32,000 nt of DNA from Buchnera aphidicola (Eriosoma harunire) (lineage in GTDB: Bacteria; Pseudomonadota; Gammaproteobacteria; Enterobacterales; Enterobacteriaceae), in NCBI GenBank assembly GCA_049942765.1, contig CP188086.1, positions 595,316 to 627,315 of the forward strand, written 5' to 3'. Position 1 is the stretch's first letter. Every line of letters starts with the position of its first letter. Made by a program: the position numbers and the translations under genes. The notes beneath the pieces were generated by a model. The model was not told the origin of the DNA, did no database searches, and saw only the letters and a program-made list of their open reading frames with translations. This document shows positions 497 through 7,197 of the stretch, in pieces.

Positions 497-2095
497 ATGA
501 ATAAAAAAAATTCTATACGACAAGCTTTAATTAGTGTATCAGACAAATCTGGACTTGTTTCATTAGCTCAATCATTAATCAAAAGAAATATAAATATATT
601 TTCTACAGGTGGAACAGAAAAATTTTTAAAAAAAAATAATATCACTACTACCAGTATATCTGAATATACTCAGTTTCCTGAAATAATGAATGGTAAAATT
701 AAAACTATACATCCTAAAATTTACGGAAGTATTTTAGGTAATCCAAACGATGATAGAGATATTATGAATTTTTATAACATTGTTCCTATTGATCTTGTTA
801 TAGTTAATCTGTATCCATTTTCAAAAAAGATTGCTATTGATAATATTTATCATGAAAATATACTTAATTATATCGATATTGGTGGAGTTACATTAATTAG
901 AGCTGCTGCTAAAAACCATCCTAACGTTATGGTGGTAGTTTGTCCATTAGATTATCCATTAATTACCAATTTATTAGATAATAATAATAATACATTTAAC
1001 ATAGAAGACAAGTTCTACATGGCTTGTAAAGCGTTTAAATATACTTCTCAATATGACAAAACTATTTTTGATTACTTAATTCAACATAATATTAAAACAT
1101 CCACAATTCAATTAAAAACACAACCTTTACCCAATTATATAAATATTAAATTGAAAAAAAAACAAGATTTACGTTATGGAGAAAATCATCATCAAAAAGC
1201 AGCTTTGTATTTTAATACATTAGACAATCAACATCATATAACTAATTCTATTTCATCGGCTAAACAAATTCAAGGCAAATTACTATCATATAATAACATA
1301 TCTGATGCAGATATAGCATGGGAATGTGTTCAATCTTTTAAAAATCCTGCCTGTGTTATTGTTAAGCATGGAACTCCATGCGGAGTATCTGAAAGTACTT
1401 CTTTATTAAATGCATATTTATCTGCTTATCATTGCGATAGTATATCCGCATTTGGAGGGGTTATAGCGTTCAATCACATATTAAATAGTATTACAATTCA
1501 TGAAATATTAAAAACACAATTTGTAGAAGTAATTATAGCTGATTCTGTAACAGAATCAGGATTAGAAATTTTAAAACTTAAAAAAAATATTAGAGTAATA
1601 TTATGTAATAAAAATAAAAATAAAAATTGTTATGATATAAAATCAATTCATGGAGGAGGATTCTTAGTCCAAGATAGTGATACAATAGAAACTAATTATA
1701 ATGCATGGAAAAATGTTAGTTTTAAAACACCTACTAATCGGGAATATTTAGATTTGATATTTGCTTGGAAAGTAGTGAAATTTGTTAAATCTAATGCTAT
1801 AGTGTATGTACAAAATCAATCAACAATTAGTATTGGTAGTGGTCAAACAAGTCGAATTGATTCAACAAAAATAGCTACTTCAAAAATAAATGACAAAAAA
1901 CAATCTTTAAAAAACATTGTTATGGCTTCAGATGCTTTTTTACCCTTTAGAGATAATGTTGATGAAGCAATAAAAATAGGTGTATCTTGCATTATTCAAC
2001 CTGGTGGATCTATAAAAGATCAAGAAATTATTCAAGCTGCAAATGAACATAATATAATCATGATTTTTACTAATAAACGTCATTTTAAACATTAA
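497..2095 (+). CDS. purH: Bifunctional AICAR transformylase / IMP cyclohydrolase
   Basis: The 532-aa ORF is colinear with E. coli PurH. Shared motifs include ALISVSDK, STGGT, KTIHPKI, VNLYPF, DIGG, YGEN.HQ, SYNN and the MASDAF.PFRD...QPGGS C-terminus. Confidence 0.95.
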   Translation: MNKKNSIRQALISVSDKSGLVSLAQSLIKRNINIFSTGGTEKFLKKNNITTTSISEYTQFPEIMNGKIKTIHPKIYGSILGNPNDDRDIMNFYNIVPIDLVIVNLYPFSKKIAIDNIYHENILNYIDIGGVTLIRAAAKNHPNVMVVVCPLDYPLITNLLDNNNNTFNIEDKFYMACKAFKYTSQYDKTIFDYLIQHNIKTSTIQLKTQPLPNYINIKLKKKQDLRYGENHHQKAALYFNTLDNQHHITNSISSAKQIQGKLLSYNNISDADIAWECVQSFKNPACVIVKHGTPCGVSESTSLLNAYLSAYHCDSISAFGGVIAFNHILNSITIHEILKTQFVEVIIADSVTESGLEILKLKKNIRVILCNKNKNKNCYDIKSIHGGGFLVQDSDTIETNYNAWKNVSFKTPTNREYLDLIFAWKVVKFVKSNAIVYVQNQSTISIGSGQTSRIDSTKIATSKINDKKQSLKNIVMASDAFLPFRDNVDEAIKIGVSCIIQPGGSIKDQEIIQAANEHNIIMIFTNKRHFKH

Positions 2096-2188
2096 CTTTA
2101 TTTACTTTAATAAAAAATAAAATTCATATTTTATATTTATATAAAATATTAATGATAGTAATATTTTTATGTTTATTATTACTAAAAT

Positions 2189-2331
2189 AGTAAATAATCT
2201 CAGATCTCAAATCAGTTAGTAGATAGTAATTTTGTATGTTAAAAGGATGCTACAAAATTGAATTTTGTAGCATCCTTTTAACATACAAAATTACTATCTA
2301 CTAACTGATTTGAGATCTGAGATTATTTACT
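2189..2331. repeat. Perfect 143-bp palindrome (71-bp arms, single central nt 2260) between convergent purH and metE; the right arm overlaps the metE 3' end
   Basis: 2189-2259 is the exact reverse complement of 2261-2331, checked base by base. The inner core 2241-2279 (AAAAGGATGCTACAAAATT-G-AATTTTGTAGCATCCTTTT) has the form of a bidirectional intrinsic terminator. Confidence 0.95.
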
Positions 2332-4571
2332 GCAATCATCATATTATATAATGATCTCTTTGTTTCCAACCAATCTCTAGTTTTTAAACCACAATCTGGA
2401 TTCACCCATAATCTATTAGATGGAATATATTTCAAAGCTTTTTTTAATGAATTTTCTATCCATTCACTAGGAGGAATATTAGGAGAATGAATATCATAAA
2501 TACCAGGTCCTATTGAGTTAAGATATTTGAATTTTTTAAAACTTTTTAATAATTCCATATTTGATCTTGCTGTTTCAATAGTAATTACATCAGCATCTAA
2601 CAATAATATAGAACTCATAATATCATTAAACTCACAATAACACATATGAGTATGAATTTGAGTACAATCTTTTACTCCAGAAGAAGCTAATTTAAAAGCT
2701 GTTATAGCCCAATCTAAATATTTTTTCCATAAACTTTGACGTAATGGTAAACCTTCTCTTAATGCAGGTTCGTCAATTTGAATAATTTTGATTCCAGAAT
2801 TTTCCAAATCAGCAACTTCATCTCTTAAAGCAAAAGCTAATTGTTTAGCTATGATTTCTTTTGAAATATCTTCTCTTGAAAACGACCATAGTAACATTGT
2901 TACAGGACCAGTTAGCATCCCCTTTACAAATTTATTAGTTAATGACTGTGCATATTTAGTCCATTTAATAGTCATAGGAGATAACCTATAAATGTCTCCA
3001 ACAATAATTGGTGGTTTAACACAACGTGAACCATAACTTTGAACCCATCCATATGAAGTAAATACAAATCCTTCTAATTGTTCTCCAAAATATTCTACCA
3101 TATCGTTTCTTTCAGGCTCTCCATGAACTAAGACATCAATATTAAGGTTTTCCTGTTGATATATAGTATCTTTAATATATTCTGAAATTTGTTCATTATA
3201 GTCTGATAAATTAATTTTTTGTTGTTTAAAATCTGAACGTAACTTTCTTATTTTTATAGTTTGAGGAAAAGATCCAATAGTAGTAGTAGGTAAAATAGGT
3301 AATTTTAATGTATCTTGTTGTATTTGATATCGAATTGTATAACTATTATTTCTACATATATCCCTCTGAACAATATTATCAATTCTTTTTTGAACATCTT
3401 TATTATGAACTAATAAAGAATCTTTTCTTTTTAAGATGGAAGAACTCCATGTTGTAATATCATTAATATTATCATTATTTAATGCATTAGTTAATAATTT
3501 TAATTCAGTACATTTTTGTATAGCAAAAGAAAACCAACTTTTAGTTACAGTATCTAATTTATTTTCTATATTAATATCAATAGGTGTATGTAATAATGAA
3601 CAAGATGATCCAATCCACAAGTTATTTCGACAATTCATAACAGGTTGAATTAATTTAAATAATTTAACCAAATTAGCTTTCCAAATATTCCTACCGTTAA
3701 TTACACCTAAAGATAAAACTAAATTTTTAGATAATAATTGATTAATTTGTGTTAAATTACATTTTTCGGAAATTATATCAATATGTAAACCTTGAATTGG
3801 TAATTTTTGTATAATATCTAAGTTATGTTCAATATTTCCAAAATAAGTAGTTAACAATAAATTATTGATACCATATAAATAATTATAAGCTGTAAAAAAA
3901 GCTTTTTTCCACGTATCTGAAAGTTCGAGTACTAATATAGGTTCATCTATTTGAATCCATTTTATATTTTTTTTTGCTAATGTGTGTAAAATTTTTTTAT
4001 AGACTGGGAGAATATTGTTTAATAAATCTAATCTATTGAATGAATCATCTATTGATTTACCTAACCAAAGATATGTTATAGGTCCTATAATTACTGGTTT
4101 TATATTGCGATTAAAACACATCGATTCATCAATTTCTTCAAATAGTTGAGTCCAAGTAATGTTAAACGATTGATCTTTATTAAATTCTGGTACTATATAA
4201 TGATAATTAGTATTAAACCATTTAGTCATATCAGATGCATGAATTATTTTTTCTTTAAATATTGAACCTCTAGCTATATTAAATAATATATCTAATTTTG
4301 ATAAATTATCATAATTTTTATGACGTTCTGGAATATTACCTAGTAACATACTAGTATGTAATACGTGATCATACCAAGAAAAATCCCCTACGGATAAAAA
4401 ATCTAAATTATTATCTATTTGTATTTTCCAATTTTTATGTCTAATATTGTAGCCAACAGATAACAATTCTTGTTGACTGATATTTTTTTGCCAATATTTT
4501 TCTTGAGCGTGTTTTAATTCTCGATGACATCCAATTCTAGGAAACCCTAAAATATGATTCAATATAGTCAT
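2301..4571 (-). CDS. metE: Cobalamin-independent methionine synthase
   Basis: The 756-aa ORF is full-length colinear with E. coli MetE (753 aa). It starts MTILNHILGFPRIG and carries the C-terminal HTHMCY and W.NPDCGLKTR motifs. Confidence 0.97.
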   Translation of the reverse strand: MTILNHILGFPRIGCHRELKHAQEKYWQKNISQQELLSVGYNIRHKNWKIQIDNNLDFLSVGDFSWYDHVLHTSMLLGNIPERHKNYDNLSKLDILFNIARGSIFKEKIIHASDMTKWFNTNYHYIVPEFNKDQSFNITWTQLFEEIDESMCFNRNIKPVIIGPITYLWLGKSIDDSFNRLDLLNNILPVYKKILHTLAKKNIKWIQIDEPILVLELSDTWKKAFFTAYNYLYGINNLLLTTYFGNIEHNLDIIQKLPIQGLHIDIISEKCNLTQINQLLSKNLVLSLGVINGRNIWKANLVKLFKLIQPVMNCRNNLWIGSSCSLLHTPIDINIENKLDTVTKSWFSFAIQKCTELKLLTNALNNDNINDITTWSSSILKRKDSLLVHNKDVQKRIDNIVQRDICRNNSYTIRYQIQQDTLKLPILPTTTIGSFPQTIKIRKLRSDFKQQKINLSDYNEQISEYIKDTIYQQENLNIDVLVHGEPERNDMVEYFGEQLEGFVFTSYGWVQSYGSRCVKPPIIVGDIYRLSPMTIKWTKYAQSLTNKFVKGMLTGPVTMLLWSFSREDISKEIIAKQLAFALRDEVADLENSGIKIIQIDEPALREGLPLRQSLWKKYLDWAITAFKLASSGVKDCTQIHTHMCYCEFNDIMSSILLLDADVITIETARSNMELLKSFKKFKYLNSIGPGIYDIHSPNIPPSEWIENSLKKALKYIPSNRLWVNPDCGLKTRDWLETKRSLYNMMIAVNNLRSQIS

Positions 4572-5504
4572 ATATTGTCCTTATTATCGATATAATATTA
4601 TATATTTATTTTTGATATTAATAAAAACCAATAATTTTTAATACAATGTTTTATAGAAAAAATAAAACATTAATTAAATATAATTTAGTTGTTTACATAA
4701 ACTATTTTATAATATAAAACATTGAAATACAAAATTTTATATTAAAAAAAACTATTAATATATATACAATATTAATAAGTAATATTTAATTAATAAAAAA
4801 TTAAACAAATTATATAATTAATCAAAATTATATATTTATTAAAATCAATAAAAATATTTAATCTTAATTATTTTAAATAATGTTAAAAACATTTTTCTTA
4901 TTATTAAATTTACAAAATAAAATAAAATAATTTTTATTAACAATAAAAAAGAACTATTATTTAATAATAGAAAATATTTTTTATCATAAAAATAAATTTC
5001 AATATTTATTTAATATAAAACATTTAATATTTATAATTATATATATAAAATAAAAAATCTTTTGATTGTAAAAAATTTTAATAACATCAAATTAAATATG
5101 TTTTTAATAAAAATAATTTGTACTGAAATATATTTTTTTAGTTTATGTTGGTTACATTAATAATAAAAAAATACTCTATTTAACTCTGAATTAATAATAA
5201 CTATTTTTAATAAACATATATCAAAAAACAGATAATAAAATTATTATTTTATTAATAGTATTTATTATTAATAATAAATAATGATATAAATTTAACAAAA
5301 TTAATAATTAACAAAAAAAATAATTTTACTGTATATCGTACAACTAATAACATGAGTAACTTACATTATAATTTATAATAACATCACTAATTTTTATAAA
5401 TAAAATATAAATTAGACAAATATTTTAATTATTTTGTTAATATAATTTTTATTAATTACTTCTAATTGAGGTTAAATATATTTTGAAATTATAATTTACA
5501 GCAT

Positions 5505-6018
5505 TCATAATACATCCTTTACTTGAGATAAATACATATCATAATCATTCATATTATCTCCAAATGTAATATAATTATCTAGAGTGCAACATATTTTAGA
5601 TGAAATAAATTTCAATACTGTAACTTTAGATATATCATAGTGGACTACCATTGCACATCCTATAGCAAAAAAACATTGTATTTTTAAAACTATAGTTTTA
5701 TGATTTCCATTTTTAATAATTGTAATTTATTAATGTTTGAGAATTTAAAAAATATTTTATATATATTATTAAAAATTATAATTTTAAAATTTAATAAGTT
5801 AATTTTAAAAAAATATTACATATGCTATTTTTTAAATTAATATTGTTATGAATATATTATTAATTACGAAATATATTTTCGTAGTAATGTCTAAATTATT
5901 CCTTCTTAAATTACATAAATTGATTATCAATATTATGATAAATATAACAATAAAAAAATAATCTTTGATTAGGATCATGTGTTCGAAATTCATTAGAAAT
6001 TATTACATAAAGTTGCAT
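5505..6018 (-). pseudogene. yigL: Eroded relic of a Cof/YigL-type HAD sugar-phosphatase
   Basis: A minus-strand open stretch 5726->5508 (stop at 5505-5507, no start codon) reads ..GCAMVVHYDISKVTVLKFISSKICCTLDNYITFGDNMNDYDMYL. E. coli YigL reads ..TCLEVMAGGVSKGHALEAVAKKLGYSLKDCIAFGDGMNDAEML (HAD motifs III and IV). A 35-codon ORF at 6018->5911 (MQLYVIISNEFRTH..) sits where the N-terminal DxDGT motif would be, now degenerate. The fragments lie in different frames and the C-terminus is truncated. The position upstream of metE on the same strand matches E. coli yigL-yigM-metR-metE synteny (recalled from memory). Confidence 0.5.
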
Positions 6019-6256
6019 GTTAAAATATTCCACAATAAAAATATATCAGCATAGTATCAAACTGTTATAAGAATAAAATATATATTTTTTAAAAACATTC
6101 AACAAAATTGATTTTTTAAAATCAATAATTTTACATTGAGATGTAAATAATACCCTATCTAAATTACTTACTATAATTTTATACATATATAATACTTAAA
6201 ATAAGTCATTATATTAAATATGTTCCATTAAATAAAAAATTATTTTTTAATATTCC

Positions 6257-6301
6257 AGCATCAACAAAAAAACAATTAATATGAAAGATTTTGCTGATGC
6301 T
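6257..6301 (-). terminator. Possible rpoH terminator hairpin
   Basis: AGCATCAACAAAA (6257-6269) pairs with TTTTGCTGATGCT (6289-6301). The one non-Watson-Crick position is a G-U wobble only in the minus-strand (rpoH) transcript. It lies 27 nt after the rpoH stop. The 19-nt loop is large and the trailing U-tract is weak. Confidence 0.3.
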
Positions 6302-6327
6302 AAACCATTAATAAACAATCAGTAATA

Positions 6328-7197
6328 TTATGCTTCTATAGCTATCTTTAACTTTTCCATCGCAGCTTTTTCTAATTGTCTAACTCGTTCAGCTGATATT
6401 CCATAATCATTAGCTATTTTTTGTAATGTGATTTTATTATTTTCATTTAACCATCTAGCACAAATAATTTTTCTACTTCTTTCATCTAATCGTAATAAAG
6501 CATTAGATAATTTTAAAGTAGCATGTTTTTCCCAGTTATTTTCTTCTAATAAATTAGCAAAATCAGAAGCATGATCTCTTAAATATGGCATATTAGATTT
6601 AACTTTACCTTCTATATAATCATCTTCAGAATGTAAATTAAATGCTATATCTTGAGCTGACATACGAGATTCCATTTCTCTAACATCGTCACTACTAACA
6701 CCTAATTCTTTTGCAACTAAATCTAATTCTGATTTATTAAACCAACCTAATCTTGATTTATTTTTTCTTAAATTAAAGAACAATTTTCTTTGTGATTTTG
6801 TTGTTGCAACTTTTACAATTCTCCAATTTTTTAATACATATTCATGTATTTCTGATTTTATCCAATGAACAGCAAATGATACTAAACGTACTCCTATATC
6901 AGGATTAAATTTTTTAACAGCTTTCATTAAACCTATATTACCTTCTTGAATTAAATCAGCTTGCGGTAAACCATAACCTGAATAATTCCTAGCTACGTGT
7001 ACAACAAATCTTAAATGAGATAAAATAAGTGTTTTAGCAGCATTTAAATCACTATGGTAATACAATCTCTGAGATAAAAATTTTTCTTCTTCCAATGATA
7101 ACATAGGCCAAGAACTAGCAGATCTAATATAAGATTCTAAATTTCCTAACGAAGTAACTGCAAATCTATTTTTTTTATCAATCATTTCATATCTCAT
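6328..7197 (-). CDS. rpoH: RNA polymerase sigma-32 (heat-shock sigma factor)
   Basis: The 289-aa ORF is near-identical in blocks to E. coli RpoH, for example [39 protein letters not shown], the RpoH box [10 protein letters not shown], and [10 protein letters not shown]. The true start may be the internal Met at 7185. Confidence 0.95.

Follow-up and report, generated by a model that had tools for sequence, protein, structure and literature searches.

The stretch of DNA analyzed here, 32,000 nt of the chromosome of Buchnera aphidicola (Eriosoma harunire), symbiont of an elm-gall aphid (CP188086.1, positions 595,316–627,315; hereafter the window), contained a perfect 143-bp palindrome between the convergent genes purH and metE, one arm of which was formed by the 3′ end of metE itself. 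The palindrome is real and is no assembly artefact. Comparison with other Buchnera lineages pointed to a persistent repeat, built outward from a terminator hairpin, whose arms have evolved in concert, most likely through RecA-independent template switching at the hairpin; we assign this overall account a probability of about 0.6.

The palindrome at the purH–metE junction

The two arms (2189–2259 and 2261–2331), each 71 nt long, were reverse-complementary at 71 of 71 positions, with a single nucleotide (G2260) between them. Both neighboring genes were full-length according to NCBIfam equivalog models, and the last nine codons of metE (VNNLRSQIS, 2304–2330) fell within the right arm. Because the MetE equivalog profiles aligned up to residue 754–755 of 756, the right arm was identified as the original end of metE and the left arm as the copy, which begins 94 nt past the final base of the purH stop codon. 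A first-pass annotation, made from the sequence alone, had described the repeat, its coordinates, the content of its arms and the direction of copying in the same way. GC content was 25.4% in both arms, compared with 7.5% in the spacer adjoining the copy arm; the copy arm thus escapes AT decay. No second long inverted repeat of high identity was detected in the window, where the next best candidates were AT-rich, 20–42 nt in length and 70–90% complementary.

Computed as a single strand, the region folded into one continuous hairpin, as had been anticipated for the metE transcript. On both strands the RNA fold had an energy of about -120 kcal/mol (z = -23 to -24), the DNA fold was -75 kcal/mol with z = -26, and none of 200 shuffled sequences folded equally well. 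No Rfam family reached its gathering score; only generic hairpin look-alikes (miRNA precursors, HrrF) were obtained, at 17–40 bits against thresholds of 49–139.

The published assembly of CP188086 was built from Nanopore reads at 431x with Miniasm and Racon, and was then polished with Pilon using Illumina PE75 reads (PMC12243488). A separate test of the junctions was provided by the Logan assembly, a k=31 de Bruijn assembly of Illumina run SRR33632139. Its metE-side contig stopped at window position 2302 and its purH-side contig at 2218, both exactly k-1 = 30 nt into an arm and on a common 30-mer, agtaaataatctcagatctcaaatcagtta. Such a break is as expected for a true inverted repeat, and both outer junctions therefore exist in the short reads. 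The Logan contigs cover these outer junctions, while the inner 41 nt of the arms and the centre rest on the long-read assembly. The first pass had asked for a check on raw reads to exclude an assembly artefact; on the present evidence the palindrome is not one.

Table 1. Features of the purH–metE region in the window (positions are those of the window).
Feature	Position	Strand	Description
Native arm	2261..2331	-	metE 3′ end (1 nt + last 9 codons, 2304-2331; stop TAG, 2301-2303) and 40 nt of metE 3′ flank (2261-2300)
Centre base	2260		one unpaired nucleotide, G on the + strand
Copy arm	2189..2259	+	inverted duplicate of the metE 3′ end and flank, in the purH 3′ region
Inner hairpin	2241..2279		AAAAGGATGCTACAAAATT-G-AATTTTGTAGCATCCTTTT; probable ancestral bidirectional terminator core, common to convergent purH and metE
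Spacer, purH stop to palindrome	2096..2188		ordinary decayed DNA, 7.5% GC; neutral reference for the copy arm
Incidental open reading frame (ORF)	2169..2219	+	16 codons, MFIITKIVNNLRSQIS*, translating as noted in the first pass; product of the copy arm; no evidence for gene status
purH	497..2095	+	convergent neighbor upstream; NF002049, 651 bits
metE	2301..4571	-	3′ end is the native arm; NF003556, 1087 bits

Orthologous palindromes and concerted evolution of the arms

Nine Buchnera relatives were reached by protein search followed by look-up of the encoding contigs, giving ten lineages with the window. The outgroup consisted of 80 metE loci of free-living Enterobacterales, obtained by scanning a genome collection with MetE (conserved HMCYCEFN pattern) and including no Buchnera. 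Convergent metE and purH were found in eight of the nine relatives, purH having been lost from the Cinara genome. Four relatives, from two further 'Eri...' hosts and two Mindarus species, had a long palindrome at the metE/purH site (Table 2). In all five palindrome genomes one arm was the lineage's own metE 3′ end with its 3′ flank. These five genomes came from three groups and three pipelines (Nanopore + Illumina; MEGAHIT + NOVOPlasty; a series deposited in ENA). The other five lineages had a short hairpin or nothing at the site, namely L086 (a 641-kb genome), L089 ('Tet...'), L090 ('Phy...'), L091 (Cinara) and L092 (Baizongia pistaciae, AE016826). Among the 80 free-living loci, the stem following metE was at most 13 bp and in no case overlapped metE coding sequence. 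The MetE tree was star-like.

Table 2. Long palindromes at the metE/purH site of five Buchnera genomes.
Locus	Genome	Arm length	Differences between arms	Centre	Coding nt in arm
Window	Eriosoma harunire, CP188086	71 nt	0	1 nt	31
L083	'Buchnera (Eri...)', OZ060395	~86 nt	1 substitution + 1 single-base indel	19-nt loop	58
L084	'Buchnera (Eri...)', OZ060402	91 nt	0	1 nt	62
L085	Mindarus japonicus, CP135030	129 nt	0	0 nt	88
L088	M. keteleerifoliae, CP135024	146 nt	0	1 nt	94

The arms of the two Mindarus symbionts started at the identical metE nucleotide (TTTAAAAACAAGAAC...) and had a common terminator core, and in between were separated by 22 substitutions and 21 gap columns. Those of L083 and L084 started within 1–4 nt of each other and were 20 substitutions and 8 gap columns apart. 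Outside the arms, metE had a synonymous divergence (dS) of 0.59 between L085 and L088, 0.60 between L083 and L084, 0.78–0.81 between the window and L083 and L084, and 0.95 between the window and L085. Had the arms evolved independently since these lineages split, one of them without constraint, differences at tens of percent of their sites would be expected. Within the five genomes, arm-to-arm differences amounted to 2 of 523 positions (0.004 per site), and the four perfect palindromes pooled gave a 95% upper bound of 0.007 differences per site. Arms were far more alike within a genome than between orthologues, which argues for a persistent palindrome in concerted evolution and not for a single recent accident. 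Judged from these alignments, the simplest reading makes the palindrome older than the splits within each pair (L085/L088 and L083/L084), with every later change either erased or mirrored; it is probably also older than the split of the window, L083 and L084. Persistence is scaled here by dS, and time is uncalibrated.

The difference in composition seen in the window recurred in the other genomes, with 24–38% GC in the copy arms vs 7.5–14% in the spacer directly adjoining them; inter-ORF DNA elsewhere in the window had 13.6%. Arm boundaries were sharp and abrupt. Decayed metE homology beyond the arms was found in none of the five genomes (p = 0.3–0.9; window, p = 0.68), and the idea that the palindrome had formerly been longer was rejected on this ground. 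Since the purH-side flanks were too decayed to align, orthology of the repeat is based on the common metE/purH site and the outer boundary in metE. A relic of the purH 3′ end, which would date the junction, was suspected in the DNA bordering the L083 arm; the idea was rejected, the similarity being non-significant (p = 0.16–0.66).

Several features were peculiar to single lineages. L083 had the only palindrome with an asymmetric loop (19 nt) and with arm differences (6289–6335), these being one C missing in an A-run and, at 3 nt from the outer edge, a C/T difference; it may represent an earlier or less often corrected state. The loop itself was symmetric in the window, L084, L085 and L088. In L084 the outer end of the palindrome (6216–6224 and 6390–6398) coincided with the last two codons and stop of purH (AAG CAT TAA), the whole metE–purH spacer being palindrome, and the 9-mer that ends the arm, AAGCATTAA, was common to the purH terminus and, out of frame, to metE. 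A template switch could have returned at this 9-nt stretch of microhomology. In L085, mirrored promoter-like sequences (TTGACC-17-TACAAT; 10 of 12 matches, as consensus matches only) at 5265–5293 (-) and 5332–5360 (+) pointed away from the centre, one antisense into metE and one into purH; duplication by the palindrome would thereby create an antisense promoter pair. The non-coding part of the L088 arm (5278–5329, mirrored at 5331–5382; GTCAGGTGGATGGGAAGGAATGGTC...) had 40% GC vs 7.5% in the spacer just outside, far above expectation for Buchnera intergenic DNA, and biased hairpin correction or a remnant of another sequence are possibilities. Among the lineages without long arms, L092 (Buchnera Bp) had a 1.35-kb AT-rich gap between metE and purH (5275–6627) without a called gene, compared with 100–300 nt in other lineages. 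The gap, which is probably a decayed gene or insertion, held only a short terminator hairpin (5307–5340).

Origin, maintenance and role of the arms

Alignment of the metE 3′ region, together with the individual sequences, revealed a hairpin of the form A-tract/GATGC-loop-GCATC/T-tract at the same position in the three Eriosoma-lineage genomes, in Baizongia (AAAACGATG...CATCGTTTT) and, in a looser form, in Tetraneura (L089). The Baizongia and Tetraneura symbionts had this inner hairpin without long arms, in line with the first-pass suggestion that a comparison of spacers might show only the inner hairpin to be ancestral. An equivalent hairpin with a GGCGC core was present in the Mindarus symbionts, and L085 was the only genome in which the consensus scan called a bidirectional terminator. 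In the window the inner stem had a GGATGC core and lay 40 nt past the metE stop and 145 nt past the purH stop. Only 4 T followed it, within the extended stem, compared with T5–T8 in relatives and with the minimum of 5–8 U expected of an intrinsic terminator on both strands. The consensus scan made no terminator call in the window, L083 or L084; limits of the tool (loop length, G-C pairs, tract position) are the probable cause in L083 and L084, and the scan is uninformative for perfect palindromes. Of the earlier description of this core as an ordinary bidirectional intrinsic terminator, the hairpin was thus borne out, and the T-tract proved weaker than had been stated. Most likely, the centre is an old terminator that served metE and purH in both directions, to which the long arms were added later; its role in termination is a reading of the sequence.

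On the account favored here, the 3′ end of metE and its flank would have been copied, inverted, to the purH side of the hairpin in Buchnera of the Eriosoma lineage and of Mindarus, and any change arising in a single arm would thereafter have been removed or copied into the other. During replication, the nascent strand would presumably switch template at the hairpin, within a strand or across the fork (quasipalindrome correction), a route for which RecA is not needed. RecA and nearly all homologous-recombination proteins are reported absent in Buchnera (PMC1193525). In such a switch, a nascent strand stalls, anneals to the opposite arm, uses it as template and goes back, by which imperfect inverted repeats are made perfect independently of RecA (PMC7202029). 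It has also been put forward as the reason why perfect inverted repeats with short arms (<20 bp) are conserved across Proteobacteria (PMC5941160). Which sequence survives would be settled by purifying selection acting on the metE arm, and the non-coding copy would follow metE and keep a coding-like GC content instead of decaying toward AT. The boundary may shift when copying overshoots and returns at a microhomology, as possibly at the 9-mer of L084, which would explain arm lengths of 71–146 nt. Template switching would account for identical arms, mirrored substitutions and indels, sharp edges, symmetric centres and occasional movement of the boundaries. The centre most likely still terminates both transcripts, and the long outer arms most likely perpetuate themselves as a by-product tolerated by Buchnera, at most reinforcing termination or destroying read-through transcripts. 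The mechanism of template switching, the idea that the palindrome is tolerated because hairpin nucleases are absent, termination at the centre and the absence of selection on the outer arms are all inferred.

What the arms would do in RNA depends on where transcription ends. If termination occurs at the inner hairpin, the outer arms would never pair in RNA and both mRNAs would end in the same arm sequence followed by the hairpin. With read-through, made plausible by the weak T-tract, a 71-bp perfect duplex including the metE stop codon is predicted to form in either transcript. Such a duplex would be a natural substrate of RNase III (criterion, at least ~20 bp of perfect double-stranded RNA, dsRNA) and could give successive chances of termination at the U-rich stretches of the descending arm. 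In a more ambitious and quite doubtful version, the long arms would be an adaptive conserved element of Eriosoma and Mindarus Buchnera, that is, a terminator extended into coding sequence which gives identical 3′ ends to the convergent mRNAs of PurH and MetE, both folate-dependent enzymes, yields long dsRNA for RNase III on read-through, and has been kept perfect by RecA-independent conversion between a coding and a non-coding arm over a long, uncalibrated period. If true, this would be a device for post-transcriptional control or insulation in a genome that has lost metR and most regulators.

Upstream of metE, the window contained a 1.75-kb ORF-free stretch (4572–6327) with 14–18% GC. A decayed HAD-family (Hydrolase_3) pseudogene was located there at about 5535–6186 on the - strand (tblastn vs the L084 orthologue, E = 6e-9 and 3.5e-5). 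No relic of metR, the LysR-type gene adjoining metE in L084, L086 and L090, was detectable in 4572–6327, and the metE activator has therefore apparently been lost entirely in the E. harunire symbiont.

Retention of the long arms for a function in RNA or transcription is an unlikely explanation, though one with several points in its favor. The arms could form a 'zipper' terminator, in which the growing stem always abuts a U-rich tract and offsets weak terminators in AT-rich DNA; a fail-safe, in which read-through yields 71–146 bp of dsRNA that is cut by RNase III; or a shared 3′ module of the purH and metE mRNAs. Persistence in at least two aphid-symbiont lineages across dS 0.6–0.8, the window's inner stem with its 4 T and no called terminator, and the extreme predicted stability of the RNA duplex on both strands are as such a function would have it, and it follows directly from the sequence that both mRNAs would bear the same arm sequence upstream of the centre. 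Pairing does not, however, require 100% identity over 71–146 nt, Buchnera is known for weak selection, the length and sequence of the arms vary freely among lineages, and a short hairpin at the site suffices in five other Buchnera lineages; termination at the inner hairpin would moreover leave the outer arms unpaired in RNA. Recurrent new formation, with the terminator hairpin as a hotspot of snap-back or fold-back copying at which each lineage has recently and independently re-made the inverted metE 3′ duplication, is distinctly improbable. The number of coding nucleotides in the arm does differ by lineage (31, 58–62 and 88–94), the boundaries are sharp and without decayed outer homology, centres of 0–1 nt resemble fresh fold-back products, and the 9-nt identity between metE and the purH 3′ end at the outer end of L084 is a possible switch-back site. 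Yet sister genomes have the outer boundary in common (exactly in Mindarus, within 1–4 nt in L083/L084), which is unexpected from independent events, and five such events would all have to fall within about the last 1% of the time since the lineages split. In practice this alternative merges with the favored account, both needing an ongoing templated process.

The remaining alternatives fared worse. One very recent duplication in the E. harunire strain only, through a template-switch or snap-back error, would fit the zero divergence between the arms in the window and had been one of the two possibilities offered in the first pass, active maintenance being the other. It is very improbable, as four relatives are palindromic at the same position, each from its own diverged metE. 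Long orthologous palindromes with arm-to-arm differences, such as that of L083, had been named in advance as what would speak against a recent origin; recent origin was accordingly abandoned and maintenance retained. An artefact of assembly, polishing or library preparation, such as a fold-back chimera or arms equalized by short-read polishing, is equally improbable. It could appeal to the Pilon step with 75-nt reads and to the short-read assemblies of the relatives, in which arm reads may cross-map and the central loop may collapse, but it is countered by the 431x Nanopore backbone and by the Illumina k-mer graph, which contains both outer junctions and breaks there at exactly k-1. The locus is moreover palindromic in five genomes from three groups, genomes of the same accession series, L089 and L090 among them, show no palindrome, and L083 keeps its arm differences, so that the pipelines are able to represent them. 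Insertion of a palindromic mobile element of the REP/MITE type, which would now supply the C-terminus of MetE, is scarcely credible. A long perfect inverted repeat in an intergenic position would suit such an element, but the non-coding 40-mer of the arm matches only twice in the 32-kb window, both matches being the arms themselves, the coding part corresponds to the native C-terminus of MetE as aligned by the profiles, and the arm sequence follows each lineage's own metE. A REP/MITE-like element was rejected for lack of dispersed copies in the 32 kb and because the arm encodes the native MetE C-terminus.

Some considerations weigh against concerted evolution by template switching as set out above. 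RecA-independent annealing, or repair of a cruciform heteroduplex, would leave an identical pattern. The absence of RecA is taken from the literature on Buchnera, the present data being 32 kb of the genome of the E. harunire symbiont, and a lack of sbcCD or of the exonucleases that suppress quasipalindrome mutation would be a further supposition. Each sampled region had one such palindrome, and if template switching is generic, the extension of only this terminator is unexplained. With the palindrome in five of ten sampled Buchnera lineages and a star-like tree, one origin followed by several losses cannot be separated from two or more origins. In the Illumina-only assemblies (L083–L085 and L088), perfect identity and centres of 0–1 nt could be partly idealized through cross-mapping or a collapsed central loop. 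Finally, the core in the window is weak as a canonical terminator and extension of the arms might compensate for it; the long arms may yet be under selection.

Significance and comparison with known systems

Buchnera is a textbook example of genomic stasis. Arms co-evolving perfectly while the locus accumulated dS of 0.6–0.8 are direct genomic evidence of an active, recombination-like templated process of homogenization in these genomes. Through it, a mutation that arises in the junk DNA of the copy arm can be carried over to the coding end of metE, a gene essential for amino-acid biosynthesis, and vice versa. The locus also offers an estimate, from sequence alone, of the rate of template switching relative to point mutation. 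Hidden perfect inverted repeats could be mined from large short-read collections by their signature of de Bruijn contigs stopping exactly k-1 into a k-mer shared in reverse complement. The literature search returned no specific earlier description of the metE palindrome or of gene conversion in Buchnera; one study treats conserved hairpins in Buchnera spacers in general, and not the metE palindrome (PMC3164680). Concerted evolution of an inverted repeat by templated correction and bidirectional terminators are known in kind. As far as that search shows, the scale (arms of 71–146 nt), the gene content (up to ~30 codons and a stop) and the persistence in a symbiont regarded as recombination-free appear to be new, and natural quasipalindrome correction at this arm scale and time depth is undocumented in the literature searched.

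Y-chromosome palindromes and the chloroplast inverted repeat, which span kilobases to megabases, undergo arm-to-arm gene conversion by homologous recombination. As at metE, their arms resemble each other within one genome much more closely than they resemble their counterparts in other species, and functional genes lie in one arm (in part as mentioned in PMC5941160), whereas the metE palindrome is ~0.15–0.3 kb and belongs to a bacterium reported to be without RecA. The bidirectional Rho-independent terminator resembles the centre of the palindrome, with its A-tract, G+C-containing stem and T-tract between convergent genes and its position kept in other Buchnera; the metE stem differs in running 71 bp per arm into coding sequence and in having a 4-nt T-tract that lies inside the stem.

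The long palindromes that the Leach laboratory engineered into the E. coli chromosome (one interrupted, 246 bp; one perfect, 460 bp; PMC4245961, PMC3315005) are likewise perfect or near-perfect, a few hundred bp long, and extruded as hairpins in replication. In E. coli, SbcCD cleaves a perfect chromosomal palindrome on both sister chromosomes, which is lethal (PMC4245961), whereas the Buchnera palindromes of 143–293 bp are stably inherited. By analogy with E. coli, SbcCD-type cleavage would therefore be absent or ineffective in these symbionts. Tolerance of a palindrome of a size lethal to E. coli with SbcCD points to which nuclease losses matter.

Under the quasipalindrome template switch (Ripley model; E. 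coli thyA and lacZ QP reporters; PMC7202029, PMC5941160), the two arms should remain identical to each other even as the whole repeat diverges between species, and the metE arms show this pattern. Known cases are short (arms <20 bp in PMC5941160) and non-coding, or are single reporter mutations, whereas the metE arms are 71–146 nt long, include up to ~30 codons and the stop of an essential biosynthetic gene, and have co-evolved across dS 0.6–0.8, presumably by the same mechanism. The closest endosymbiont analogue is the duplicated rRNA operon of Tremblaya princeps (PMC4479817), the copies of which are identical within a genome though the duplication is older than the divergence of strains. There the repeats are dispersed and of kilobase scale, and their homogenization is ascribed to the homologous-recombination genes of the nested partner Moranella, whereas the metE repeat is a short hairpin-forming palindrome in a host reported to be without RecA.

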